NCBI GenBank assembly: GCA_036172245.1
Contig: JAYWIR010000017.1
Location: forward strand, 1-64,000
From: Raillietiella orientalis
Lineage: Eukaryota
Direction of reading: 5' to 3'
DNA: 64,000 bases
The notes beneath the pieces were generated by a model. The model was not told where the DNA came from and ran no database searches. It saw only the letters and a program-made list of their open reading frames with translations. This document shows positions 534 to 41,583 of the stretch, one piece after another. The stretch's first letter is position 1. Each line of letters opens with the position of its first letter. The position numbers and the translations under genes were made by a program.

Positions 534-1971
534 TCCAACTGGCCGCGGAGGGGGCTGGCTTCAACGATGCAGCCAGCTCCTCCGTCGCACGCTCGAAGGC
601 GGCGTCGTCGATCACGGTCTCGATGACGGACGCTTCCGCCGGTTCGCTCCCCACGCTGTTGACATTTTCAACAGTGGGTTGCTCGTCGGTAGCAGCGATT
701 TCTACCCTGCAGCGTTCGGCGGGGACGCGTTCCACGACGACGCTGCATTCTTTTAAATTCTCGCTAACCTGCTGTTTTTTATTTTGGTAGGCGAGCTTTT
801 TTTCGATTCGTCGTTCTTTCTTCGACTTTTTTTTCTTTTTCGCTGTGACTTCTTGCCATTCCAACACCTGACCGCTTTTGTCAATCTTTTCGGCATTCGT
901 TGCCGGGGTGTCGGCTGAGGCCTGGACCACGGGAGTGGGTGGCACAGCTTGAGCGGCAGCCTTCGCCGCCAGTTTTTTCTGTAGCAGCCGCGCGCGTTTT
1001 TTTAGGTTCCTCGCGGAAACCACGCGCACAGAGGATTGTGGACACACTTCCTTCGTTTGGCCCATTGTCCCGCATACCAGGCACTGTACGTTGGGGCACC
1101 TTCTTTTGAGGTGTCCCGACGTGTTGCAGAAGCCACAGTATTTGGGCTTCCCCACGTACCAGAGGTCGACGCTTTCTCCTCCGACCACCAGTTTGTGGGG
1201 AAGGGTAGAGCCCTCCCGAACGGTTACACGGGCAGCCGTGAGGCCGCACTGAACTGTGGTATAGTCCTCGAAAGGACTAGGCTTGGTCCATACTGCATGG
1301 ACCGTGCCTTCTTTTCCCAACGCGGCGCGTAACTGTTCTTTCCGCATCCGCGCGGTAACTCCTAAAAGGTGGACCAACATCCTGTGGTCCGCCGTAACGG
1401 GAAGGAACCTGCGTGTCCCCATTACCACGGGGGTTTTAAGCAGACGGTGGGCCAGATCTGCATGTTTGCAGATCACCTCTACGTACTGTTCCCCGCTACG
1501 AATGGTCATAGCGCAGAGCTCCTCTTCTTTAACTTCGAGAGCGCGCATCCCCTTCGAAAAGGCGCGCGCACTCTCAGCAGAATACAAATTTCCTACCTTG
1601 TAGAATAGTAATGGGTTATACCCCTCTTCCACATAGGCAGATAATTCCGCCGCGGCTGCAGGCGATGGCGCCGACACGACGGCGCTCCACGCCCGCGCTG
1701 CAGCGGGGACCGGTTTTGTGCGGGCGGACGCCCCCACCTCCTTCGCCACTGAAGGCGACGTTGCCGCCGCCCCCTGGCACTCCACCTTCTCTAGAGGCGA
1801 CGTTGCCGCCGCCACCTGGCACTCCATTTCTTCAGGAGGCGACGTTGCCACCGCCCCCTGACACGTACTGGTGGTCGCGTCAGGCATTGCTGCCTGATCG
1901 ACTACCACCACACACGAAGCCTACACCTAGGGACGGTTCCCGGCACGAGGAGCACCGAGGAAACACGTCCG
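534..1971 (-). mobile_element. L1/Tx1-like LINE ORF1 (gag-like, CCHC zinc knuckles), degraded, with 5' UTR
   Basis: Minus strand VDLWYVGKPKYCGFCNTSGHLKRRCPNVQCLVCGTMGQTKEVC (~1170-1040), followed by a Lys-rich region. The 5' motif CGGACGTGTTTCC is at 1971-1959. Confidence 0.85.
1753..1864. repeat. Tandem repeat, ~2.7 copies of a 42-bp unit within ORF1 N-terminal region
   Basis: AGGCGACGTTGCCRCCGCCMCCTGRCAC.. starts at 1753, 1795 and 1837. Confidence 0.9.
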
Positions 1972-1999
1972 CTCTAGACGACGTAAAGCTTTCGACTGC
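1959..1999 (-). promoter_or_regulatory. Putative Inr plus DPE internal promoter, second copy
   Basis: GCA(+1)GTC with A at 1997 and GGACGTG starting at +28 (1970). Overlaps RT-coding sequence on the opposite strand. Confidence 0.4.
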
Positions 2000-4135
2000 G
2001 TCGACCAGGAACTCCTTCTGGAGCTTCTGGAGCGCTTGGAATTTCCGGCCGTCTTCCTGGCCTACCTGCGCTCCTGCTGGCGCTTCGCGTTCATTAATAT
2101 TAATTTCAGCGGCCGGTACGTGTTCGGCGTGCCGGTTCGTCGTGGCATCCGGCAGGGTAACAGCCTCAGCCCCCTGCTCTTCAGCATCTACTTTGAGTTG
2201 GTGCTGAGAGCATACAGGGAGACTTTGGCAACCCTGCCGAGCTCGTGTCCCGGCACGCCTGCCGTGTCGGCCTATGCCGACGATCTTCTGCTCCTGCTTC
2301 CCGGGTCCACCCCGGCATCGGCGCTCGAGGATTTCTTCGAGTTGCTATACCGTGGGACAGGCCTCCAGGTGAACAGGACGAAGTCGTCGTTGCTTTTCAC
2401 CGACTCGACGAGGGCCGGACGGTCGGACTGGATCCGCTTGGGGATCCCCACGGGCAGGTACATCAAGTACCTTGGCGTTCCGTTGGGGGACTTCTGCTCT
2501 GCAGAAGCCTGGTCCGACCGTCTACAAAAGGTGGAGCTGGCGATCGGCCCGTTCCGGGACGGCAAGTTTCACTTGCAGGAACGGGCCACGGTATGGAACG
2601 CTTTCGCGGCCCCCCTCCTTCGCCCCCTACTTTTTGTGTGCCCTACCCCGTATCAAATCAGGACACGGTCTAGGGGCCTTATACGGAAAGCCCTCTGGGG
2701 CAACCGGAGGCCTCGCGTCCGGCTCAAAGACTTGTGCGCTCCACGCAGGGACGGTGGACTTGGTCTCCTGACGTTGGAGCGCATGGAGCGACAGCTCCAA
2801 TTCAGAAAACTTGCCCTTGTGGCAAAGTTTTGGACAGCACCCTGGTGTGCACCAGCAAGACTCCTTGCTCACAGGGCAACCGGCTGCTTCGGATTGACTT
2901 CAATCCTGGTAGCCAACGAACGCAGCCTGAACCATTGTGGTTATCAGCTGCGGGATTTGGTTGCTCTGATGAGAGACAACCCTTGGATCTCCTGCATCCC
3001 AGCGGACTGGACTACCTGGCTTCAGGAATCCGTATCCGCATGGGCGAAGATCAATGGCACCAGCGATGAGGACTTCTCCTGCCTCCGCAGAGGAAGGCAC
3101 GCTGGTCAGCCACTCCAGGAGATCGTTTCCAACCCACGGAAACTTCTGTGGGCTTCCTTCACCCCCCTTGCCCCAGTGCTGCCCTTCCTCAGGGAAGTTC
3201 GGGACAGCAACCAACAGGCATCGTGGGAAGTGTCCTGCCTCATCGGAGGCAGGAAGAAATCACTGAAGGCGTGGACGCCGAGGGAACTAGCGGACGCTAG
3301 TACCCCGAGTGTCCCGCCGAACGGACTTTTACGCTGGGGCGAGCTGCTCGGTATACCTCCGGAGGAGGTGAAGTGGCCCCCAGCGTCATGGGACAACGGC
3401 ACCCTTCCCCTGCAGTGGCAGGAGACGGCGTTGCTTCTGCTCCACTGGGGACTTTTAAGCAGAGCACGCCTGTCTCGCTGGACATCGGGGAATGTGGATG
3501 CTAGTTGTGCAGAGTGCGGGGAAAGGGAGACCTTCCCCCACTTGATTCTGGAGTGTTTTGCCCTCCACGAAATGTGGGACAGACTCTCGTCGATCCTCAA
3601 CATTCCGGAGGGTCACCCGAAAAATCTATTCAGACGCCTTCTGACGCGAGACGGCTTGCCAGCCTCCGGGAGCGTAGCAGTGCTCTGCTGCATACGCGGT
3701 ATCCTGGAGAAGTAGACCGCGTCTAGGAGAGGAAGGGCCAGCCGGAATGCCATCCACTGGGCAGCGATCTCCTTGGAGAAAGCGTGCCGTTGGCGCCGAC
3801 TTCAAAAACATTTGCCAGCACTTGTTCGCATCCGAAACCGGATGCAAAGGCCTGCTCACGGCGCACCGTGATCCCCTCCCTCCCTCCCCCTCCCCAGAAA
3901 ACTTTGCCCTCCAGACGTTTTTCTTTTTTGGTTTTTGTTTTGTTTTATTTTTCCCGTCCCGGCGCCAGTGAAGGACCTTATCGACCTCCGGGTCGGTAAG
4001 GACAAGTGCTACTGAACTTCTGAACTGAACTTCTGACGTCGTAAAAAGAAAAATTTTAACAACATAGACTTTGTTACAAAATTTTGTAATTTCAAAATTT
4101 TAGTAATAAGAGCCCCGGCTTACCCGGGTGAAAAA
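1971..4135 (+). mobile_element. L1/Tx1-like LINE ORF2 3' half (RT motifs to C-terminal CCHC) plus 3' UTR and short A tail
   Basis: Open frame 1985-3715 with KAFDCVDQ, GIRQGNSLSPLLF, AYADD, IKYLGV, GGLGL and CAECGERETFPHLILEC. A pyrimidine-rich UTR and terminal hairpin plus AAAAA follow at 4105-4135. Confidence 0.93.
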
Positions 4136-6051
4136 CCTGCGACGGGAGACGTGAGGCCCACGTCTCCCCAACCTATGGAGGTGGGGTCATGCCCCACCAG
4201 AAAATCAGCCCCCGCCACCCCGGCGAGGGCGTGGAACAAGGTGGCCGCGGCGGCTCCGCCGGACGTGGCCGCCGAAGTGCAGGCCTACATAAAGGAGGGC
4301 TACAACCCAGCCCTCCTTTAGAAGGTAGGAAATCTTTATTCACCGCTTACAACGCGGAAATTTGGAAACGCCATCCGTAGGATGGGAATCTCTGACAAGG
4401 AGATTCTTTGCTTCTCGATTCGGAGCGGCGGGCAGTTCGCGGAGCTGATCTGCAAAGATGCAGCGCTCACACACAAACTGCTCTGCACGCCCGTTCCGTT
4501 CGAAGGGCGGAATCTCCTCCCACACACGGTGGATCACTCTATGGTGATCCACCTCACGGGTACAACGGTGCGGATGACCGATGAAGCCATCCGCACTGAA
4601 ATCAACAAATTCGCGGAGATATACGCGATGTGGTCAAAGCCCAACGCCCCTACTTATCGAGGCGCATTCAGTAGGCGAGTGGCCGCACGCGTAACTCTCC
4701 GCGAAAACAAAGAACTTCCCCACAAGCTTGAAGTCAACGACGAGCTCGTCGACCTCTGGTACGTGGGGAAGGAAAAATACTGTGGGCTGTGCAACACATT
4801 CGGGCATCTTAAAAAGAGATGCCCGGATGCCACATGCCCAATTTGAGGCGCGAAGGGCCACACTAGTGCTGTGTGCCCGAAAAACGCCGCGACAACGCCT
4901 TCAGCCCCTTCGACAAACGAGGGGAAGAAGGCAGAATTTAAAGCAAAGAGCGATGGAAAGCCGACTTCAGAAGAAGTCGTGCACAAGGAGCAGGAGCCTC
5001 AAAAGGAGACTTCTGATCCAAATGCCGACGAGGAAGGCTGGAAAATCGTCTCCGGCAAAAAACCCAAACAAATTGAAAACAAAACAAAAAAAATCCCCAC
5101 AAAAAACTCAAAAAATCAGAATGCGAGCGTTCCGAAAAAACCCGCGGTCGGCAAACCAAAAATTCCGCCGCGCGAGTACATAAAGGAATGCCGCGTTACA
5201 ATCGAGCTGCGTTCCGTCGATAGAGCGTCGATCGGCGAACGCGACTCCCGCAACCGTCGCGAACGCCGCGGAACCGCCGCAGGAATCCTGCGACAAACAC
5301 GCGAGCAGCAGCGACGAGAAAAACTTCGCGAAGGCGGCGGAGGAACTCGCGGCCACCTTAATGCAGACGCCAAAGGCTGCAAAGAAGGCCGTCAGACGTC
5401 CGGCGGAAGTTAAGGGCCCGGAAACTTCCGGGTCCGAGGCGGAAGCCGGAAACCCTCCCACCGTCGCCCTTCCGAAGAGGAAGGCGGGCCGGAAGTCGCG
5501 CAACCCTATGCGCGCCGCTCCCCCTCAGGCTGAGGAGGAGGAGATGCGCTCGGATAGCGAGGAGGCGATGTCCGCGAGGTCGCGGGATCCCTCCATCGAC
5601 AGCATCCGGTTGGTCCTTCCTATCGACCTCAGTCCGGCTGCAGACGTTCCGGTCGTTGCCGGAACGCCACCAGCGCAGATGGACAACGACCAGCCGCCTC
5701 CCGAACAGGAGGCGGCAATACACACGCCACCACCATCATTAGTATGATGCGTGGAATCGCCTCTTGCCGGCAGCTGCGTATAGCCTGTTGGAATGTCAAC
5801 GGGCTGCGTAGCGAAAGCAAGAGGCGTAGCGTGGCCGACACCCTGCGATCTTTCGACCTGGCACTTCTCCAAGAGGTGCATGCCCTCAGAGCAGAGGACG
5901 TCCAGGAAATCGAGAGGCTCACAGGGGGGAGGCTACTTTGGGGTGGTGGAGGAGACCACTCCCGCGGAGTGGCCTTCCTGCTGAAGCCGGCCGTCGCCAA
6001 TGCGGTGCGCAGTGCACAGTTCGACGAGGAAGGTCGAGTCGGACAACTTGT
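4136..6051 (+). mobile_element. L1/Tx1-like LINE ORF1 (degraded) and start of ORF2 APE endonuclease
   Basis: CGLCNTFGHLKKRC knuckle at ~4780-4820. ORF2 from ATG 5744 reads IACWNVNGL...LALLQEVH...SRGVAFLL...DEEGR, then is truncated at ~6051. Confidence 0.9.
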
Positions 6052-6826
6052 CCACTTGAGGACAACCTTGAAGGGTTAGGTGTTGGCTCTAGGCATTATG
6101 CAAATTGGTATAGCCCTCCTTAATGGGCAATGTCTAGTTTACTAATTGTAGCTTGCAATTGTGTTGTTGGGTAATCTGGAAATAGTGTCGCATACTTGTC
6201 GTAATCATTTCTTTCCAACCAGGTCATTAATTGACAATATGGCTGCAGCTGCTGCAACAGAAGAGCTTATAGCAGCATTTGAAGAGTATAGTGAAGGTCT
6301 TCCAGATTTGGACGGCGATATAGAGATTGGCCTTGCTACCGTAACAGACATATCTTTACCTGAAGATAGGAGATTACCAATTTATCAACCCACCGATGGT
6401 CGCGTTACCAATAAAAACTTAGCGGCAGAAGCAAACGGCTGGATACTCTAGCAAATTGTATAAGGATAACCAGATCCTGCTCATGGTGAATGGGATCTAT
6501 GCTTTCCTGACATACGATATGATCCGGTAAAGGCGAGTCAATGGAGAGTTAATACCAGACGGAGATTGCAGACCCACTTCACAAAGATATGATCTCACAC
6601 CAGCACAGCGCACCTCGAGTCAGGCATTGCTTTCCAAGCAGCTGGCAGTTAACTGCATGGTACTGATCATTGCAACCAAAGTAACATGTTGGTTAACAAA
6701 TCATCATACTGGAGTGAGAAAAGACAACCTTAAAGGGGCTGGTTTTCCTCTTAAAGTATGGCGGTCTTTGTTTGCGAAAGTCACTATATCTGTGGAGAAA
6801 GGGATGGATATGCTGCAAGATCCTGG
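6052..6826 (+). pseudogene. Probable endogenous viral element: RNA-virus nucleoprotein-like fragment (tentatively Qinviridae-like)
   Basis: Abrupt drop in GC. Intronless frame from ATG 6239 (MAAAAATEELIAAF...) is broken by stops and a frameshift, then continues to VLIIATKVTCWLTNHHTG. This resembles the K-x-x-W-x-x-NHH-x-G motif I recall from qinvirus-like nucleoproteins (recall only, unverified). Confidence 0.5.
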
Positions 6827-8305
6827 GTAAGATTGAAAGACTTCGTGGTGCCGTGTCAGGATGCAGGCTTGGGCATCCTCGACATAAACAGCATCGAGCC
6901 GCAGGTGCAGTTTCCTATGCTGCGGCTCTGTGCCAAGCTGTGGTGTACGCCGTGGTGCTTACACGCACGTCTTGTACTAAGGCGCTGCACGGGTAGCCAT
7001 GGAGTGCTTTCGTTGCCGCCCCACTTTCGGCACCCCAGAAATAGGTTTGGCTTCCCGCTGAGGCAGCTGTCCCCGCTGCTGCAAGCCCAAAGTTGGATTT
7101 CCTGCCGCCCCATGAACATAAGTGCATGGTGACAGGAATCCTTTGCATCGTGGGCCGCTTCCGAAGGAACGCGCCCGGAAGATCTTCGACGCCTGTGACT
7201 TCTCTTCAGTCATCCAATGGAGGAAGTCATACAGGACAAGAAGTCGGATCGTCTGGCCACCACACCACTCGCCGCAGCCCTGTCTAAACTCAGGGCAAGC
7301 AACGACAGTTGCCTACCGGCGGAATGGGAGTTCTCTTGCACAATAGCAGGTCTAAGCTCCTGGGCGGTTGGACGACAAAGGAGCTGGTGGAAGCCACCAC
7401 TCCTTGGAATCAGGCGAAGGGCCTGCTTCGGTGGAGTGAGCATTTAAGTGTAACCCCGAAGAGATAGTGGTTCCCCCGTTTGTTTGGACAGCTCCGTGTT
7501 CCCCTTAAAATGGAAACAAGATGTGCTGCTCTTTTTACACTGGGGATTCCACTGTAATTGGCAGCGAAGCACCATTTCCGGGGGAGCTGCTTCGCCAAAC
7601 TGTTTGAGGTGCGGAGATATCGAGTCTTTTCCGCACCTCTTTCTGCACTGCGGTGACTTTTGTGAACTGTGGCGAAGGCTGATTTCAGCCATCATGCCGC
7701 AGGGAGGCACTGCCATTGATGTGCTGCGGCGCTTCTTCAGCAGAAATGGACTTTCGGTAGGCGTGATTGTCGCAACCATGTGTTGCATTCGTGCCATCGT
7801 GAAGGCCCGCTACGCCTTGGAGTTGTCAGCGCAGCGAAGGAAGGCTCACCTGCTTGCAGCTGAATCCATGGAGAAGGCTGCAAGTTGGTCTCATCTTCGT
7901 GACGAGGTGAAAGAGGACATCGCCGGCATGCATCGCCGGTTTACAGACTTTTGAGAACGGCGTAATCCGGTGACCCCTGCGACCTGTATCCCACCCATAC
8001 TCCATCCCCGTTCGCTCTGCTGAATTCTCGGTGCCATTACTTATATCCCGGTGCCTACCAGAGCTATTTCAAAGACCCTTGTCCCGGAGTCCAATATTCA
8101 TTGTTTTTCTTTTGTTTTTGTTTGTTTGTGTTCCCCGTCTCCACACACCGTTCCCAAGAATGTTATTCTGTCCTGCGTGCCAGCAATATTCTCTTGATCC
8201 TTGTCCAGTCGACGGTTGGGAGCCTCCTTCCCAACTGGTTTATGTTATATAATTTTCACTGCATGATTATATGGAATAAACGCCCCGGCATGACCGGGTG
8301 AGAAA
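6826..8305 (+). mobile_element. 5'-truncated L1/Tx1-like LINE: post-RT ORF2, CCHC finger, 3' UTR
   Basis: VRLKDFVVPCQDAGLGIL aligns to VRLKDLCAPRRDGGLGLL of 2036-3715. Also CLRCGDIESFPHLFLHC, and an AATAAA-hairpin-AGAAA terminus at 8275-8305. Confidence 0.9.
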
Positions 8306-8430
8306 TCTCCCAGGCTTGATCTGCGGAGATCACATGGACCTCCTGCAGCAGCACTAGGTGCGAAGGATGCCAGGATGCCCTGTCACTTCTCTTGCCGTCA
8401 TCGCTAAGCCCGGCGACGTTCCAACAGTCC
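8306..8430 (-). mobile_element. Fragment of LINE APE endonuclease N-terminus
   Basis: Minus strand CWNVAGLSDDGKR...HLVLLQEVHVISADQAWE, homologous to 5786-5910 and 32766-32890. Confidence 0.8.
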
Positions 8431-8449
8431 TACTATTCCAGAATGCCAA

Positions 8450-11400
8450 ACTACAAAAATCCACACTGATCCAGCACAGATGGAGAGCTGCTTGCCTAAA
8501 CCAAGATAATAAAACAAAATCCTCATGAACAACGAACTCCGAAAATGCCCTAGAATTCCTTACGAAAGAAACCCAACCCCAAAGTCACTGTCCATTTTGC
8601 GCATTTCACAAAACCATGACTATCTTCCTGGCATTTACCACAATGCAACCATAAGGCAAAGAGATGTTCATTCTCGGCATCGCGTAACGACTGTGCCGGG
8701 ACAGCTGTGTAAAATCAGCGGTTTCCGTAATTCTTGCAGTACACCAGCTAGACAAAAGTTTGAAAATGAAGACAATTAACCTCGCATCAAAATGGGGAAA
8801 TACGGCTCGAAAGAACACCATAGAGCTTAGAGTTCAAGAATATCCGACCACCACCCTGTACTGGAAACGGAAACGTTCCTCATAGGTGTGTAATCGCAAA
8901 GACAGAACCAGACTTCCTGGAAAACACCCTTGCACTCTGCGTAACAAACACAAATTATGAATAAAAATCCAACCCTCACTAAGTACCCAGGAAGGGACAA
9001 TGGATAAATTGCAAGCAAGCTATGGCAACATCAGATTCTAACAACCCTTCATCAACAACCATATGCCATCTTAGTGTCAAGATGATACTCAAGATGAAAC
9101 AAGACGAACTTCTGAAATCTTTTATTAGTTAGGACATAAGGTTCAATTTCTTGCAAAAGATGCCAGGAGGCGCATTCACATCAATAAAAATCCACAAACG
9201 TCATGGCTTTCCCAGGAAAAGACAAAGAAATGTATGTATATGTATGTATGTATGTATGTGTATATATATGTATATATATATATACATATACATTTGCTGT
9301 GAATATTCTTACACAAGAATAGGATAGCATGAATAAAGTACAGATTCCAAATGAAATAAATATGCAGTTTTGAAATCAAATCATTTAAAAAGGATTGAAT
9401 TCCAACATGTACCACCTTCATACCTAGACAAATGCATTCTTGAATTTCCAACAAAAAGAGGGGCAAAGCATCAGCCTCCTTCCAGTCCTACTATTTCATG
9501 CTTGCTATCATGGAATTCTATCGATTTTTTTTAACAAAAAGCATTTACTCCTGAGTAAATTTCCTGCCTATCAACCTAACCACATAGAAGCAATCTGGCA
9601 TTTCACCATGTTGCACATTCCAATCACTCATTCATACCTGGAACACGTTCCCTATTACAAAATTTTTTGTTCACATCCTCAGCTTTCACTCATTCATCGA
9701 AACTTCATATTTGCACAACATTCTAATGCCAAAACATTCAGCATTGACAGCATCACATTCAGCAAACGTTCAAAGATACCCAGCTGCATATACATTCAAG
9801 CTATTGAGTTCATCAACGCTGAAATCAAACTACCTTGTGAATGGCAGAATTGTACACAATTTGTAAGACTTGAATGATTTGGGATAAATTTTAAACCTGA
9901 CACTAAAATGACAATGTCACTGTTTTTTTTGAATATGTACAATGATGGTGAAAACAGGAATTGCTATCTTTCAAGCAGGCTATGTTTTCCATTCAGAAAC
10001 ACTTTGCCATCTAATGCACCTTTTGCAAAACTGCGATTTCTATGATGTGAATAAGCACTTTGCTGAGTGATTAACAAAAAGGGCAATCCACTCCAGAACC
10101 AAAAAGAACGAGGCAACACAGGGGTTTCACAAAACGAGTTCAATCATTGTACCTTTATTTTCCTGTCCTTCAACACACATTGCAAGTCAAAGTTGAGCTG
10201 CACATACTTTCCCTGACTAAAACATGATCCTAATTAGTACCTACTTCCTCGTTCGTTCATTTCCTCTCATACAATATCAAACCCATTTCAAAGTTACTCA
10301 AAAAAGTTCACATGCATTTCAAACATGAATTTGTTGAGATTCATCCGCCAGTAAAAGCTCTCCGTGAAAGTAAGCTTTCCCATTTGAAAACTCATAATGT
10401 ACTCACTTCATACTCTTTCCTCCAAATCCTCTTTTCGGTTTGCAGATAAACTTTTCCTTGCAGCTTTACTTACTAACAGTCATAGGGCACCACATGAGAA
10501 ATCTAGCATTATAAAATGAGGACATGCAAGGAAGACTTGGTATAAACTATGGTGATGGCACAAATACACTTGCCAATAAGGTCTTGAAGCTGGCACAAAA
10601 CCATACAGAAATAACTGATGGAAACCTTAGATTTTTTTAAAAAGAATTGAATGTTTGTATGAAATCTTGTAATTTTGCATCATATCATCATGAAAACGCT
10701 TTTGCAAATCACCGATCACAATAATATTTAAAACCAACACACATTAGCAAACCTAAACACCATGTTCACTTGGAATCTAACAAAGCTTCTTATTAGGTAA
10801 ATTCCAAGACGTAAGATCCTTTATGAATGAAAACCTCGGAAGTAGGAAGTTAGTAATGTCTCCATTACTAATCAGCACTATTGCCAGAGCTTCCAACAAT
10901 TTTATGTGGAGATACCATGAGAGTTCAATTTTGAATGAAAAGAGATTCATTAGTTGACAGATTCCAAACTATTTGTTTCCACAAAATCCTCAGCAGCAGG
11001 AACATGCAGTTGATTCCTTAACAATCAAACTCAATTTAGAATTCAAGACATCTCTGCCATCATGCAGAGTTAGCAGATTGCTTTCCTTTTCTGATATTGA
11101 CTTGGAAGCACTTCTTTCATAAGACTAGGCTAAAATTAAAATTTGTTTTCAAGAATGCATCTGCTTCGATCTGATTTGATGCAAATAGTGTTTTCAATGA
11201 GAGTGAATCTTAGCTGCTCATCACGAGCACCAAACCATGTTCAACACCCTACACCAACACAAAAGTATTTTCTTAACCACGATGAAAATAATAGGCAAAT
11301 ATGGAAAACAACGTGACTTATAAAGGTATTTAAGTTTATTTAATTAATTCTTCAGTCATATGATCTCAGAGGCGGTTGTTGCGAGTATCAGATCCATTAT

Positions 11401-11650
11401 AAAGACAATCTAACCATATCAATCTATCTGCAAGCTCTAAAACCATAGTCCACTTTCACACACACTCAAAAAAATAGACTTATCTAGAGTTATTATAGAT
11501 AGTATCTTTCACTCAGATGATGCAAACTGCAACCAAAGTATTGTCTCCTGATGGTTCATTTTGCCCATCTAGGAAGCTTTTCTTGGACAGCATTTCTCAC
11601 TGCTGGATTTCCCTACATCTAGTTAGTTCAACGAACTGACCGTTTCAAAA
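8450..11650 (-). pseudogene. Long intronless decayed coding sequence of unknown (possibly viral) origin; paralogue of 24880-26200
   Basis: Single frames persist for hundreds of nt with scattered stops. Peptide blocks QHGEMPDC, LFLLEIQEC..VVHVGIQ, FIFKLLSSWCTAR and SRYAM have collinear counterparts at 24.9-25.9 kb. Boundaries are approximate. Confidence 0.5.
9230..9292. repeat. (TATG)n/(TA)n microsatellite
   Basis: tgtatgtatatgtatgtatgtatgtatgtgtatatatatgtatatatatatatacatata. Confidence 0.95.
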
Positions 11651-32100: not shown

Positions 32101-32724
32101 TACTCAGAGTGACATTTTCTTGCTTCGCTTTCTGTATTTCTTCCGGAAATCTTGATGCTTGGTTCTTCGGAGATTTTTACAACTCGTCTGGTTGTGCGTG
32201 CTTGTCGTCCGCATTCCGTATCTCAGAACTGTTGCATGAGGACAAAATTACATATTTGTTGTTTCGACAGGAATATCCGCCAACAAACCTCTGTTTCCTG
32301 ATTTTTAACAGAGGATTACGACAGGAGCTGGGGAGAAGCTGGACCTTCGGAGTAACACTTTTGCAGAAAGTTTTAGTGAAGTTGTCTCTCTCTGATAACA
32401 GTCAAGGGACAATAACTTTTGCCAACTAGTATTTTGTATCTTTGATTTTTCAGCAATATATTCCTAATTTTCCTTATGTAGTTTTTATTTGCGTGACTGC
32501 TCCCTGCCAGAAAACAATCCTGGAACTTCACGAAGCGATTCTGAGTTGCCAAAGTTCATTGGTACATATCCGCATTCGGATACTCAATTGGTGAACTTGA
32601 GTGTTCCACGAATACTTGATGATTGATTGCATGGAAACTGTTTATTTCCTGCTAGTCCTTCTTTAGATCTCTTCGTTAGGCTACTGAGGAGAATGTCTCT
32701 TTCCGTCACGAGGAAGGCGGAACT

Positions 32725-34442
32725 AAAACGAAGGAAGTCGCCTCTTTTCGTCGATTCAGCGTAGCCTGTTGGAACGTCAATGGGCTGCGCAGGGACGGAA
32801 AGAGGCGCGACGTGTCAGACACCCTGCGACATTTCGATTTGGCGATCCTTCAGGAGATGCATTACATCTCCGATGCGGAGGTTGCCGAAATCGAACAGCG
32901 CGCGGGTGGCACCCTGTACTGGCGAGAAGGTTCTGCACAATCGTGCGGAGTCGGTTTTCTCGTACATAGTAGGATGGCGGGAGCGGTGCGCAGCGTTCGA
33001 TTCGACCAGGAAGGGCGAATGGGCCAACTTGTACTCAAGTGGTCAGATTCAATCGACCTCGTCGTAACGAACGTCTACGCGCCGAGCGGCTTTCATCGGC
33101 GTGTCGAAAGAGTCGAGTTCTTCGGCATGTTGGAAAGCCGATGGTTCAGGAACTCCGGAGCCAGAGTGGCCCATCTCGTCGCAGGGGACTTCAATGTCCA
33201 CCTGCTTTCCAACGAGACGAGGTCCCTGGCGGAACGGTCGCGTGTGGAAGAGGCATGCGCGTCGGTGCACGCGCGTAACTTGAAAGCCGGCGATCCTGGA
33301 CTAGAAACGTGCGTGGTTCATATCTACCTAGATGAACACCTACTCTCACAAGTGGGAAGGAGAGGCAGGGTGCCGTCCACGTTATCGGACCATGATAGGC
33401 TTGAGTTCGAGCTTCTCCCGCCAGGCAAGGGAGCTCTGAACAATGTTTGGCGGATGCCGGCGGATTGGCTCAGTCATCCGGAGGCGGCGGAGCATCTTCG
33501 CCAGTTTCTCCGCGGCTTTGCCATCCGGCAACTCGCAGACTGGGACCATCTTAAAAGATCGGTTTGAGAGTTTTGCGACCGGTTCCCCCTGCACCTGCTA
33601 CCGCGCGGCTTCGGGGAAGGCGTGGCCAATAGCAGAGAATTTCTGCAGGCTCGCACCTTCTCTAGACGTGCGGAAGTCCGGCAACTAGCAGAGTACAAGG
33701 CGAGGGCCGAGCGCCAGGTCTGGAAGTCTGGGGCGGCTATTCTGCTCGACGACCAAGGCCGGGAATGCACGGCTCCTGCCGACGTACAGCGAGCACAAAG
33801 GCGTCACTTCTCCTTGCTCTACGCCAAATCCCCGACGGAGAGAATCCTCTCGGAACTACTTCTGCCGCGGGGTGCACACGGCAACGGCGAGGAGGAACGC
33901 GCTCGTCTCGACGAGCCCTTCACGTTGGAGGAAGTTTCTTCCGCCATCGCAGGACTCAAGAGACGGAAGACGCCAGGTGAGGACGGGCTGCCTGCGGGGT
34001 TCTATCAGAGCTTCGCGGCGGAACTCGTCCCCCTGGTGCTCAGACTCTCGACGCTGATGAGGGTGACGGGCGATGTCCCTTCTTCCTTCCGCTCAGCGAG
34101 GGTGCGTCTCCTTCCGAAAGGAGGAGATCTGCGCCAACTCAACAACTGGCGTCCGATCACGTTAGTGAATACGGACATCAAGTTGTTTTCGAAGCTGTGG
34201 GTCACGCGCCTAGGAAAGGTCGCGGAGTCCGTGGTAAGCCCGGAGCAGTCTTACGCTGTGCCGGGTAGGTCCATGGATGCGAACCTCCTTTTCGCGAGCA
34301 CCGGGTGGCAGCTTCAAGAGCGCGTTGCGGCGGACAGCCGAACAGCGGCTAGACCTTCTGCCGACTGCGAGCGCCAGTGCGGACCGACGGGAGAAAGGCC
34401 GAGAGCCTTGGCAGTCGCATTAGATTTGCATAAAGCATTCGA
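32725..34442 (+). mobile_element. L1/Tx1-like LINE ORF2 5' half (APE endonuclease and RT up to motif A), frameshifted
   Basis: VACWNVN, LQEMH, NVYAP, VAGDFN, LSDH, KTPGEDGLP, NWRPITLVNTDIKLFSK, then ALDLHKAFD, where it is cut. Confidence 0.93.
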
Positions 34443-35495
34443 TTTTTACCCGTATTTCTCCGGGTCGTTTATTTAAAAATAAACTGTACAAAAAGATGTC
34501 AGCCATGCTCCAGCCACGCACCAAGAAACAGAGCCTGCCGGGTCACCGGCTCGCAGACCGGTACGGTCCACCAAGGCAGCAGGGGGAAGGGGGAGAAATA
34601 AAAAATAAGCAAAAAAGAAAGGAAAAGTTGGGAGGGTACGGGAAGGGATCACTGTTGCTGCTGGAGCCGTTCCATCCGTCGCAGGATGCCGGCAAGCTCT
34701 TTCGGTATGGTTGGATCCAGGTGGGGCCATCTCGACGCTCTCCTCAAAAATTGGGAGGCTGGCTGGATGGCACCCTGGTCGCGTTGTCCTCCCGTAGCCT
34801 TGCTCCAGGCGTGGGACGATCCCGCGAAGGCAGCACAGGGCTGCTAACGGGGCCGCTAGCCGAAGGGCGTCGGCAACGTAGAGGACTTTTAAGGCGTCCC
34901 TGGGGTTGCCGCAGGGGATTCCGATGGCCGGGGCAAAGTGGAACCAAAGGGGCCGAAGGGCAACACAATCCACAAGTAGGTGGGGCAGGACTCCCGTTCC
35001 CCACACCTAACACCATTGGGGTTCCCCGCTCCCCAGGTCTAGTGGTGTCGACGGACGCTGCAGGGGAGTCTTCAGTGCTGCAACAGTAGAGCCGACTCCT
35101 GCCATTTAAAGGGAAGGGAGGAGGTGTTCATGAGCACCATTTAAAGGGAAGGGAGGAGGTGTTCATGAGCACCAGGGGCCACTTCAGATGTTCAATGGGA
35201 ACATCGAGCAGCGCGCCTCAGCTCAGAAGTCCATGGTGAGGCGTACTCAGGATCGCAGCGTCTGTTAGCTGTCCCATCTTCCACTCTCCTATTTTCTTCT
35301 TCCTTCCGTAGATTTCGACTATAACCTCCCACTTCGCCGCAACGTCGCTGTCCACATCTTTCAATAGGGAGGCCAGAGCAGCAGCGAAAGGATCTTTCTG
35401 ACCATGCTCTTTTCTTCGGATCCTCAAGGATCTCTCGGGAAGTGAAACTTCTGTAGCTCCCGAACAGGAAGCGTCGTTCCTGTACGGCGCGTTGC
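34443..35495 (-). mobile_element. 5'-truncated LINE 3' end (C-terminal ORF2 and 3' UTR), antisense to host element
   Basis: Minus strand FTSREILEDPKKRAW and LPHLLVDCVALRPLW...LCCLRGIV match the C-terminus of 2036-3715. Terminus AATAAACGACCCGGAGAAATACGGGTAAAAA at 34473-34443. Confidence 0.88.
35102..35174. repeat. Exact 35-bp tandem duplication
   Basis: ccatttaaagggaagggaggaggtgttcatgagca x2. Confidence 0.95.
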
Positions 35496-35705
35496 ATGCC
35501 GCTGTGTGCTCAAGTGCGAACGGTTTCCTTCCACCCGCCCACTATTTTTATCTATTTATTGTCCCCTCCCTGCCGTTCCGAACTCTCAGTGTGCCCGGCC
35601 TGAGTGCCGGGAACCCTCCTCCCCATCTTCTGTCCCCCTTGCCTGGGAACACAGTTCCCAGATGATTTCCTTTTAATAAACGTCCCGGCGCGACCGGGTA
35701 ACAAA
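35496..35705 (+). mobile_element. Very short LINE 3' UTR insertion (~210 bp)
   Basis: Pyrimidine-rich UTR with hairpins, ending AATAAACGTCCCGGCGCGACCGGGTAACAAA (family 3' motif). Confidence 0.75.
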
Positions 35706-36872
35706 CGACCACGCGGCAGCTTTTAGTTTTTTCGCGGTGCGGCGCGGTTTCGCTCCGTTTCGCGACGCTCTTTTCTTTTTTCTATTTGTTTTTGGATTTG
35801 AGCACCTGCCATCCAGGCTCCTGGCCATCATCCTCGACCTTCTCGGCGTTTTCCGCCGGGGTCTCGGAGGTGACCTTCTCCTTGGACGCGTTGATCGCAT
35901 CCTTAGCGGCGTTTCGCGCTGCTAATTTCCTTAATTTTTTTGCCGCGCGCTTGCTCGCATTACGTGCAGTCGCTACGCGGACTGAATTGGGGGGGCACAC
36001 CAGACCGGTGTGCCCCGTGCATTTGCTCTGCTGGCACTGCACATTCGGGCACCTCTTCTTAAGGTGTCCCGAGCTGTTGCAGGAACCGCAGTACGTTGGG
36101 TTTCCCCACGTACCAGACGTCAACCAACTCCCCGGTGACCTGAATTTTGTGAGCAAACTCACAACCTTCGCGTACGGTGACTCGCGCCGCCGCCAGGCCG
36201 CAGAGCAACTCGTTGAAGTCCATGAAAGAGGGACTTTCCCCACAAAGTGGACTTTCCCACCGTTGTGAATTTTTCTGTTTCGTTTCGGACGGCCTACTTT
36301 GTCATCCACAACGTTATTCCAAGAAGGTGGACCACTATCGAGCGGTCAACCGTGATCGGGAGGAGTGTCCTGCTGCCCAACGCAACGGGGGACCTCAGCA
36401 ATCGTTGGGAAAGGTCTGCCTGCTTGCAGACCACCTCAACGTACCGGCCCCCGCTCCGGATTTCATCGTGAGAAGGTCCTCTTGTTTAATGTCGTGAGCG
36501 TACATCGCCCTCGAGAAGGCGACCGCGCTCTCCGGACTATACAAATAGCCTACCTTGTAGAGGAGTACTGGGTTGTAGCCTTCCTCAATGTTGGCCCTTT
36601 GCTCAGCCATGGCTACCGACGACAGGGCCGCGTCCACGGCGTTTTACGCCCCCACTGGCGCAAGGAACGACTCGGTGGGGGCGGACACCCCCACCTCCAT
36701 AGTCTCAGAGGCAGATGCGAATATCTTCCCCCGGTCTTCATTGGTGATGGCGTCAGGCATCGCTGCCTGCGCCACCACCGAATCCACGCGAAATACTCAC
36801 TAAAGTCGATGTACCGCTCGCAGAGCTAACGGAAAACACGTCCGTGAGGCGTCGTGAGGGTGCGGTATCTGA
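35706..36872 (-). mobile_element. LINE 5' UTR and ORF1 (CCHC), degraded
   Basis: EGYNPVLLYKVGYLYS and YCGSCNSSGHLKKRCPNVQCQQSKCTGHTGLVC. The 5' motif CGGACGTGTTTTCC is at 36844-36831. Confidence 0.88.
36831..36872 (-). promoter_or_regulatory. Putative internal Pol II promoter (Inr plus DPE) of the LINE
   Basis: TCA(+1)GAT at 36872-36867, with GGACGTG starting exactly at +28 (36843), the canonical Inr-DPE spacing. Confidence 0.55.
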
Positions 36873-39941: not shown

Positions 39942-41583
39942 ATGCTTGTGGACCATACTCTTCGAGCCGTGAGATGCTGTTGTTTCATAAGACGGGGTAA
40001 TTTTCATTCAGCGATACCCGATCTTGTGAGTGTTGACAAGAATTTGCTTCTGAAATTAAGAAAAAAGACAGGATATGCATTTATCAAATGTAAAGAAGCA
40101 CTTGAAGTAAATAGTAGTAATGAGTTAAAGGTAAGCACTTGTGTCCCAAGAGAACCTTTAAACATGTACGGCAAAGGAAAAAAATAAAAGTGATACGTAA
40201 GCAAATGAATTATTTTATTTTATTCAACGTTATTGTGCCTGATGCTTCGTCATTGGGATAATTTGACCAAATTAAGCCGAAAAATAGCATCATCAGATTT
40301 TAGAGTATTCTTATTTGGAGGACTTTATTAATTTCTATATCTAGATTGCTTTGCACCATTTAAAAGAATAGTTTCTGAAACTTGGAAATTTTAATCTATT
40401 CATTAATTTCATGAGTTTAAGTACAAGTCGAAAGGCATAAAATAAATGAAAACTTTAACGGTTAACTTGTGTCAATGAATATCCATTATGATTTTAGGCG
40501 GAAGAATGGCTTCACAAACAAGCAACAGTAGAAGGTTGGGCAAAAGTGAAGCAAGATGATAGAATTACCACCCAGGGATTAATTGGCCTAATAACAACAA
40601 GGAATTTTGCTGCAATGCTCGAAGTAAACTGTGAAACCGACTTTGTATCCAGAAATGCACGGTTTTGTTCATTGGTTGCAACACTAACAAAGGAATTAAT
40701 GTTTTCTCACTTTCAAAATGTCAACAATGATGCCATTTCAAAAGTAAATCTATAAAATTATTGGAATATTAGTCAATATTGTCTTCAGAAACGCACTGTT
40801 GAGAATATCATTTTGTCCACTGATGAGTATGTATGTTAAACAGCCTCTGAAAGTGTGAATAAAGTTAAAGGTCAATTCAGAGAAAGCTTAACCATATTGT
40901 GATTGGTGGAAACAGTCCTTTGGAAACTCATCTTGTCATGAAATTTCAGATTGCAATCAACAATGAGCAGTTAAATGCTCTTGAAACAAAACAAGGTGTG
41001 CCATTTGGTGACTGTGTAGCACAAGAAGTCAGTCACATTGGAGAAAATATACGATTGCGTCGGGCTGCTTGCTATCATTTCAGTAATGTGTATCATGTCT
41101 TGGGATGTGTCCATCCTTTGAACACTGTCATGCTTGATGACACTTCGGTTCTCTTAGGACGGTATGGCACTTTGGCTGTTTTTCAACAAAAAGACAACAG
41201 CCAATTCAATGAAGCCATAGCTCAGCAAATTTGTAAGCATATTATTGGTAATAAAATCCATTTCACAGTCTATTTGGTGGTAATGTTGTTGTATTGTAGG
41301 AATGAATCCATATGAAATTGGAGATTTGCAAGCATTTTTAGAAGAGGAAAAAGATCTTTTGAAACAGCAGGAAAATTCATTAGCTTTAAAAGAAGAAGCA
41401 TGGGAAAATATAGTAGCAGATGATGAATATTTGGAACACCAAAATTCAACTCCATGTAAACCAGAAGGACGATTATTATATCAGGAATTTATTTTGGAAC
41501 CTGATAAGTTAATTGGGCACATGTTGCAAGATGCTGGTTCTGTTGTGCTGGACTTTGTTCGATATGAATGTGGTCAAAACTAA
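39942..41583 (+). CDS. TSFM: Mitochondrial elongation factor Ts, 4 exons (39942-40130, 40498-40743, 40950-41247, 41300-41583)
   Basis: LLKLRKKTGYAFIKCKEAL, AEEWL..QA..EGWAK, EVNCETDFVSRN, IGENIRLRRA, ICKHIIGMNP, VLDFVRYECG. GT-AG introns have compatible phases and there is an Arg-rich presequence. Confidence 0.95.

Follow-up and report, generated by a model that had tools for sequence, protein, structure and literature searches.

We analysed a stretch of 64,000 nucleotides (nt) from Raillietiella orientalis (contig JAYWIR010000017.1 of assembly GCA_036172245.1, positions 1 to 64,000 of the forward strand), hereafter called the window. It consists of an AT-rich eukaryotic background with a GC content of about 0.36, which is interrupted by GC-rich fragments of long interspersed nuclear elements (LINEs). 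One of these elements, LINE B, contains at 6053-6826 an insert made up of a leader of 186 nt, followed by ~195 codons from the start of a nucleoprotein (N) gene related to that of qin-like RNA viruses. The insert is found in one copy within the window. About 2.3 kb of the LINE, comprising the distal endonuclease and the core of the reverse transcriptase (RT), is replaced by this 0.77 kb of viral sequence, and all parts lie on the plus strand. The viral identity of the insert and the LINE-virus-LINE architecture are solid.

Insert, junctions and flanking LINE sequence

The insert differs from its flanks in base composition. The GC content of 6053-6826 is 0.433, compared with 0.582 for the left LINE part (4175-6052) and 0.552 for the right LINE part (6827-7954). 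In windows of 300 nt it is 0.42–0.45 across 6001-6750 and 0.59–0.62 in the flanks at 5551-6000 and 6901-7200. The initial annotation had described a low-GC, intronless segment between an endonuclease fragment and a LINE 3' half, and both the composition and the colinear alignment bear this out.

The left part of LINE B (4175-6052, plus strand) was delineated by alignments, tblastn and Pfam. It contains open reading frame 1 (ORF1) with a CCHC knuckle, which is taken from the translation, a linker, and endonuclease codons ~1-100. ORF1 begins with the ATG at 4175-4177, and two other copies in the window align from ATGGAGGTGGGG onward, exactly there. The endonuclease runs from the ATG at 5744 to ~6052 and matches Pfam Exo_endo_phos with an E value of 8e-7. 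In tblastn, query residues 20-118 of the endonuclease align at 5756-6052 with 57% identity to the copy at 32.7 kb, and ORF1 is matched too. Comparison with the intact endonuclease of the 32.7-kb copy also defines the left junction zone (6053-6060), where the LINE endonuclease gives way to the viral leader. The two sequences are clearly homologous as far as GGACAACTTGTCC, which encodes GQLV and corresponds to codon ~118 of the 32.7-kb copy, and the homology is then lost. The heptamer GGACAAC flanks this zone at 6041 and 6060. The endonuclease fragment is more than a neighbouring piece: it closes a LINE 5' part, ORF1 from ATG 4175 and endonuclease codons ~1-100, that is colinear with the LINE 3' part on the other side. 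This colinearity makes the arrangement LINE-virus-LINE, for which two template switches, or an insertion and a deletion, are needed.

The right part of LINE B (6827-7954, plus strand) is the C-terminal region of ORF2 with a zf-RVT-like Cys/His motif, identified by BLASTP, tblastn and a weak Pfam zf-RVT match. The yardstick for this part is LINE copy A, a 5'-truncated copy at 1931-4138 on the plus strand (frame 1931-3712), which retains the C-terminal half of the RT (Pfam RVT_1, E 5.7e-13), the zf-RVT region (E 1.2e-4) and the 3' untranslated region (UTR). BLASTP aligns the right part with copy A residues ~259-593 at 38% and 36% identity (E 5e-24 and 3e-25), and tblastn gives E 2e-54 over 6764-7804 with identities in the range 35-38%. 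The right junction zone, from viral N to the ORF2 C-terminal part, lies at 6776-6827 and is set by the end of the N alignment and the start of the LINE similarity. The N profile alignment stops near 6786, convincing similarity to copy A begins with VRLKD at 6827, and the BLAST extension of the LINE similarity back to 6764 is weak. The junction zones, neither of which is given a strand, are 8 nt wide on the left and ~50 nt wide on the right, where the exact base is not resolvable. The earlier description of a viral piece fused in sense to a 5'-truncated LINE 3' part agrees with the resumption of LINE B at ~6827 in sense. Between the two junctions, tblastn found no remnant of endonuclease or RT.

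LINE B ends with its 3' UTR and tail (7955-8303, plus strand), which contains a T-rich tract and no poly(A), as seen from the alignment with the copy A tail and from folding. The 3' UTRs of the two copies are homologous, and both end with AATAA..GCCCCGGC..CCGGGTGA.AAA.CT and a short hairpin, again without poly(A). This terminal motif is located at 4100-4170 in copy A and at 8270-8310 (or 8273-8308) in LINE B. The hairpins of the copy A tail fold with a z score of -2.9, and a second hairpin of 10 bp follows the motif. The motif is conserved though copies A and B share only 35-38% protein identity, and it may be the site recognized by the reverse transcriptase.

Decay is comparable over all three parts. 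The left LINE part has two premature stops, both in ORF1 (TAG 4319 and TGA 4844), the viral part is broken by a single frameshift and a single stop, and four premature stops (7130, 7196, 7445 and 7451) lie in one frame of the right LINE part. The frameshift, the stop and the truncation at codon ~195, with LINE sequence on both sides in one stretch free of ambiguous bases (the letter N), are what is found in an endogenous element. Repeats invite misassembly, and reads from an infecting virus could be wrongly joined to LINE repeats, but such an artefact is extremely improbable here. A replicating virus would keep an intact N gene, whereas this one is broken and incomplete, and both junctions fall within one contiguous sequence.

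The nucleoprotein pseudogene and its relatives

The N-terminal ~195 codons of the pseudogene, about 40% of the gene, occupy 6239-6826 on the plus strand and were identified with a family hidden Markov model, a read-through translation, blastp, phmmer and tblastx. The reading starts in frame 2 at ATG 6239 and continues to ~6442, where a frameshift at ~6443 moves it to frame 3 (6444-6826). This frame is interrupted by a TAA at 6528-6530. In the 588 nt of viral coding sequence, the disabling changes are this stop and the single frameshift. Another reading of the frames, with three stops and a late frameshift, was replaced, as one frameshift near 6443 and one stop fit the family better. The stop at 6123, the ATG at 6239, the peptide ATKVTCWLTNHHTG and both copies of GGACAAC reported in the initial annotation are all present, but the peptide had been placed in the wrong frame. 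The ORF from ATG 6239 closes at TAG 6449-6451, and ATKVTCWLTNHHTG sits in another frame (6531-6830), beginning near 6672.

A profile built from 13 natural members of the family has 418 positions. The 196-residue read-through, with X at both breaks, aligns to positions 4-156 in one colinear block with 81.6 bits and an E value of 7.8e-24. This frameshift-aware comparison with viral proteins had been suggested as a check of an RNA-virus origin, and it bears that origin out, together with tblastx, in which the insert matches all eight related loci (L001-L008). At the DNA level, the window shows no similarity to these eight loci. When the 2703 stop-to-stop frames of at least 15 residues in the window were searched with the profile, frame 6531-6827 was found with E 8.6e-14 (profile positions 85-156) and frame 6152-6448 with E 0.0033 (positions 4-36), colinear with each other. 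No other frame scored better than E 1.9, and no 3' half of N was found in the window. Because the alignment is colinear, no intron is needed in the insert. The insert thus contains the first ~40% of an N gene, with its 5' end complete and without an intron. The segment encodes nothing today and may at most feed small-RNA production within a transposon-dense region.

The leader (6053-6238, plus strand, 186 nt, GC 0.40) is non-coding and is likely the 5' UTR of a viral S-segment N mRNA. It has no match to the N profile, Pfam, Rfam or other parts of the window. Relatives also have leaders, with at least 229 nt ahead of the ATG in one locus (L001) and at least 50 nt in another (L002). The stop at 6121-6123 closes a frame with only ~23 codons inside the insert, and this frame matches nothing. 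It had been proposed as the end of an upstream viral ORF that could inform the gene order of the virus. This was rejected, because N is alone on an S segment of 1.6–1.9 kb (PMC10721934) and relatives have leaders, and the frame is best read as a chance frame in the 5' UTR. The S-segment 5' UTR is the most likely identity of 6053-6238, and we infer a viral origin for it.

A phmmer search of 1.84 billion cluster representatives gave two proteins with an E value of at most 0.001: P0002 (389 residues, E 2.7e-5) and P0003 (157 residues). Both have the motif ATK..W.[TM]NHH.G, with G replacing T in P0003. By blastp the read-through is 32% identical to P0002 residues 1-166 (E 2.8e-17), and the N-terminus of P0002 also aligns with the frame starting at 6239. 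A search with P0002 returned 12 proteins, including itself, of 280-486 residues, and the conserved blocks in the family alignment are NG.E.GIAAG, ATK.NWW.TNHHTGQG, GHWAST, PAGT and HVG..LTG. The insert is 24-35% identical to the members that align over at least 90 residues. Eleven of the 12 members are encoded on contigs of 1385-2236 nt and one on a 433-kb contig.

Several searches returned no assignment. Pfam has no family for the three pieces of the insert, for P0002 and P0003, or for any of the 12 members. PHROGs gave no match to the insert. When its first 117 residues were used as query in a word-indexed homology search on the 'longer' setting, the result was likewise empty. A sequence search of the PDB gave only noise (E > 1) for both the single piece and the profile. 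In a search of the PDB by fold with the P0002 model, no entry reached E ≤ 0.001, and the best was the nucleoprotein of HMPV (a pneumovirus) with E 0.5. The ESM Atlas linked a 99-residue piece to fungal DUF6532 clusters. Its recognition value of 1416 is below the tool's mark of 2300, and the frame-aware profile and the fold evidence point elsewhere.

The AlphaFold model of P0002, made from the 13-sequence alignment, has a mean pLDDT (predicted local distance difference test) of 77.8 and a pTM (predicted template-modelling score) of 0.75. Foldseek of this model against BFVD, a set of predicted viral structures, gave eight matches at E ≤ 0.001, the first seven with E values from 3e-16 to 1e-10. 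The best is the nucleoprotein of Sanxia qinvirus-like virus 1 (E 3.4e-16, template-modelling (TM) score 0.69, 29% identity). Proteins, either N or hypothetical, of the Wenzhou and Shahe qinvirus-like viruses, Beihai sesarmid crab virus 4 and a Frankliniella qin-like virus are also in the top seven; with Sanxia, they have E values of 3e-16 to 1e-14, TM scores of 0.68-0.76 and identities of 22-29%. The rest of the top seven are one unnamed entry and a protein of Xinzhou nematode virus 3. The eighth match is a yue-like virus, and everything below has E ≥ 0.1 and consists mostly of mononegaviral nucleoproteins. The assignment to a qin-like N, made initially from a motif, is thus reached in two steps, a match to the family profile and then the match of the P0002 model to qinvirus nucleoproteins in BFVD. 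Derivation of the insert from a qin-like N is supported through its relative P0002 (32% identical) and the predicted fold, not through direct alignment with a named virus.

Qinvirids are bisegmented, and the S segment of 1.6–1.9 kb encodes N (ICTV profile, PMC10721934). An S segment of this size with N alone fits the contigs of the relatives, for example 11 of 12 at 1.4–2.2 kb, and an IMG/VR contig of 1601 nt carries a single ORF of 380 residues (L001). The family of the insert therefore resembles N of the Qinviridae (genus Yingvirus) in its modelled fold and in relatives that lie on S-segment-sized contigs with one ORF. The insert itself differs in that no more than the first ~40% of the gene is left, in broken form. 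Its source is an unsampled qin-like bisegmented negative-strand RNA virus. One relative departs from the S-segment rule: a 2.5-kb metagenome contig (L004) has an N-like ORF at 3-1019 and then, on the same strand, an ORF at 1382-2278 with 298 codons and of unknown family. Some relatives may thus carry more than N on their S-type RNA.

Endogenous copies of the N gene are not unique to this genome. Broken N copies related to the insert are found at four loci in eukaryotic assemblies (L003 and L006-L008), and a 64.5-kb contig of a eukaryotic assembly contains an intact qin-like N frame of 448 codons at 4959-6305 (L005). In that other organism, the intact frame could represent an endogenous copy that has been preserved and perhaps co-opted.

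Origin of the composite element

Our leading account, in which we place middling confidence, is one retrotransposition event during which the LINE reverse transcriptase switched templates from LINE RNA to viral mRNA and back to LINE RNA. The enzyme would have started on the LINE RNA's own 3' tail, a stem-loop without poly(A), and copied back to the ORF2 C-terminal region at ~6827. From there it would have jumped to an internal site of the viral mRNA and run to, or near, the 5' end of that RNA at ~6053. A second switch would have led onto LINE RNA in the endonuclease region, followed by a run to the start of ORF1 at 4175. The product would be a LINE-virus-LINE element that lacks the enzyme core and keeps both LINE ends. 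We infer this order of events, as well as the origin of the two LINE parts from a single element. The insert itself is an endogenous viral element that is now dead; it copies, as DNA, the 5' part of a positive-sense N mRNA (~195 codons and the presumed leader).

Several features are consistent with two switches. On the left, LINE sequence reaches endonuclease codon ~118 of the reference copy; on the right, it sets in at about residue 259 of the copy A RT fragment. Nothing is missing from the 5' end of the N ORF, and a leader of plausible length precedes it, which counts in favor of this account. LINE enzymes of the 'stringent' kind start on their own tail, and a foreign mRNA is then copied only after a template switch. 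For a LINE without poly(A), which would be of this stringent type, viral RNA would be reached only by switching. The sense orientation means that the template was positive-sense RNA, either the N mRNA or the antigenome, and positive-sense templates are usual for endogenous copies of negative-strand viruses (available text of PMC3205384). Tripartite chimeras built from cellular RNAs provide a precedent for double template jumps by LINE reverse transcriptase (available text of PMC2104539). Sense-oriented LINE chimeras with many cellular RNAs are known as well (available text of PMC11838501); the words 'virus' and 'viral' have no occurrence in the main text of that paper.

LINE chimeras such as U6/L1 and those of Magnaporthe MGL and mammals show the same direct sense fusion of a 5'-truncated LINE 3' part to another RNA, and a three-part structure among them implies two jumps, as it would here (PMC2104539 and PMC11838501, in the parts available). 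At the present locus the parts are likewise on the same strand and fused directly, and the LINE that forms the 3' part is 5'-truncated but retains its intact 3' end. Unlike in U6/L1 chimeras, the partner is a viral mRNA that was entered internally rather than at its 3' end, and the third part is LINE RNA again. Neither target-site duplications around the whole nor a partner copied from its 3' end to full length is found. RNA ligation before reverse transcription is an alternative route for U6/L1. Template switching by a LINE, which the initial annotation had compared with U6/L1, is plausible, but the resemblance does not extend to target-site duplications or to the site of entry at ~codon 195.

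That annotation had proposed a single switch. Its bipartite product, a viral 5' part and a LINE 3' part, would have landed in or beside an unrelated, older LINE 5' fragment. The right side of the insert has the form of such a standard bipartite chimera, in which a LINE that is 5'-truncated but has its tail intact is fused in sense to the copy of another RNA (PMC2104539, PMC11838501, as far as the available text goes), and the density of LINE fragments makes landing in one of them likely. We nevertheless consider a single switch unlikely. The remainder of the receiving LINE, from endonuclease codon 119 onward, would be expected after ~8304, where we find an inverted endonuclease fragment followed by AT-rich DNA. 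It would be a coincidence that the left fragment has the same orientation and is in colinear order, and fragments truncated at the 3' end call for a further event.

The colinear order and same orientation of the LINE parts would also be seen if one element had been interrupted. A resident full-length LINE could have received a complete retrocopy of the N mRNA, in sense, in its endonuclease region, and a deletion of ~3 kb could then have removed the 3' half of N, its tail, the distal endonuclease and the RT core. The leader sits at the viral start, as in a 5'-complete retrocopy, and the locus is a mosaic of truncated, nested LINE pieces in which rearrangements are common. Integration of bornavirus N mRNA by L1, with poly(A) and target-site duplications, is known (available text of PMC3205384). 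Like the endogenous bornavirus-like N elements, the insert is a pseudogenised germline DNA copy of an N mRNA associated with a non-LTR (long terminal repeat) retrotransposon, but those were trans-copied by L1 and typically show target-site duplications and a 3' poly(A) (PMC3205384 and PMC6580184, available parts). In contrast, the insert lacks the 3' half of the mRNA and any poly(A), and it is embedded inside a LINE. Its viral part ends within the ORF at ~6826 and runs into LINE ORF2, with no A-run and no target-site duplication, and this is not the structure of an L1-type processed retrocopy. No poly(A), N 3' half or target-site duplication is thus left in support of an insertion followed by a deletion, which also requires two independent events and a chance sense orientation. 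Since the LINEs here lack poly(A), simple trans-copying of a polyadenylated mRNA by this family would be unlikely, though other LINE families may exist in the genome. Altogether this course of events is somewhat unlikely.

A third possibility is capture at the DNA level. Viral cDNA could have been made by any cellular reverse transcriptase and end-joined into a double-strand break in the LINE, with the loss of ~2.3 kb of LINE sequence. Viral cDNA is reported to be made through retrotransposon enzymes in arthropods, the right end of the viral part is arbitrary relative to the gene, and there is no target-site duplication or poly(A), all of which agree with capture. It leaves unexplained, however, the start in sense with a leader of plausible full length, and it needs a break and a large deletion at the same place. 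We regard it as very unlikely.

The template-switch account has several points against it. No target-site duplication was found: 4090-4200 and 8260-8480 share no word of 9 nt or longer, and the only shared 8-mers are GCCCCGGC and CCGGGTGA, within the LINE tail motif itself. This test is weakened by the age of the element and its uncertain ends, and the borders are blurred by copy A directly upstream and an inverted fragment directly downstream. The LINE copies in the window share only 35-57% protein identity, too little to trace the two LINE parts to one lineage, and no full-length relative came up in a homology search that used the LINE piece 6755-7132. Entry into the viral RNA was internal (~codon 195), unlike in classic U6/L1-type chimeras. 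The link to named qinviruses passes through P0002 and a predicted structure, not a direct sequence match. Evidence from microhomology is weak. GGACAAC is not remarkable by itself, with 11 copies in the window, where 6.1 are expected, and 3 of 100 shuffles that reach 11. The left junction at 6061-6075 also shares a repeat, GACAACCTT(G/A)AAGGG, with 6723-6737 in the coding part of N at 14 of 15 bases. As 9 of 500 shuffles score as well, this 15-mer repeat may be chance or the trace of a template jump.

The element with the insert resembles deleted LINE derivatives that retain only ORF1, in that the enzyme core is missing while the 5' end with ORF1 and the 3' tail are retained. HAL1 in mammals is such an ORF1-only, non-autonomous LINE derivative. 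Unlike in these derivatives, a foreign viral sequence fills the gap here. Within the window, the LINE copy at 34809-36699 on the minus strand has ORF1 (corresponding to LINE B 4176-5032) joined within ~400 nt to the ORF2 C-terminus (LINE B 7220 onward), with no endonuclease, no RT and no viral filler. A second copy of the same internally deleted build means that internal jumps or deletions recur in this LINE family.

LINE cluster and biological meaning

Directly after the tail of LINE B, at 8304-8426 on the minus strand, lies an older endonuclease fragment (fragment C, codons ~30-71; tblastn E 3.5e-5) with the translation ..CWNVAGL..LLQEVHVISADQAWEIS. A hairpin downstream of the LINE B tail was rejected as a LINE feature. 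It overlaps fragment C, and its fold has a z score of -0.8, no better than shuffles. AT-rich, non-LINE DNA begins at ~8450 (GC of 8450-11500 is 0.364), with a (TATG)n/(TA)n microsatellite at 9230-9300, just past the LINE cluster. On the other side, the tail of copy A meets the start of LINE B ORF1 tail-to-head, with at most ~37 nt between them (4138-4177). This join suggests that LINE B was inserted in, or beside, the tail of a LINE, or that the copies are arranged in tandem.

Further LINE sequence is found elsewhere in the window. A 640-codon open frame on the minus strand at 1-1920 runs off the window start. It contains a LINE ORF1 that is 50% identical to that of LINE B and follows three 42-nt tandem repeats at 1738-1863, and it looks like a younger, less decayed LINE copy. 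On the plus strand, 32680-34473 contains a LINE endonuclease (295 codons) and the N-terminal part of an RT (302 codons), both open, which end abruptly at the start of the tail of the minus-strand copy. This arrangement is nested or truncated. Rfam and tRNA scans of 3500-9000 gave nothing, and no small RNA was found at the junctions. Of the 45 long frames (at least 130 residues), 24 were submitted to Pfam, and the only non-transposon match among them is EF_TS (E 1.2e-6) for the open frame 40869-41312 on the plus strand, possibly an exon of a host elongation factor Ts gene.

A literature search, in which supplements were left out, found no endogenous element derived from a qinvirus N and fused to a LINE, and no germline chimera of a LINE with a non-retroviral RNA virus. 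The insert is a fresh example of two known kinds, the N-derived endogenous viral element and the LINE chimeric retrocopy. What is uncommon and informative is that its middle part stems from viral RNA and that the LINE involved is of a type lacking poly(A).

It is also conceivable, though decidedly unlikely, that the composite arose by two jumps in a single event and was a trans-mobilisable, non-autonomous LINE with ORF1 and a recognition tail, able to multiply with its viral N fragment and to seed antiviral small-RNA loci. If so, such a LINE would act as a vehicle that spreads viral 'memory'.

The routes by which non-retroviral RNA viruses enter animal genomes are usually inferred statistically, from transposon enrichment near insertions, or, in mammals, from the presence of target-site duplications and poly(A). 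Where the middle of a LINE has given way to a sense copy of a viral mRNA with its 5' leader, this would be a structural footprint of a template change by a type of LINE that is unable to simply copy polyadenylated mRNAs. Qin-like viruses are known almost only from metatranscriptomes, and their true hosts are debated (PMC11108086 and PMC9927876, in the text available). The insert records a past infection by a virus of this kind.

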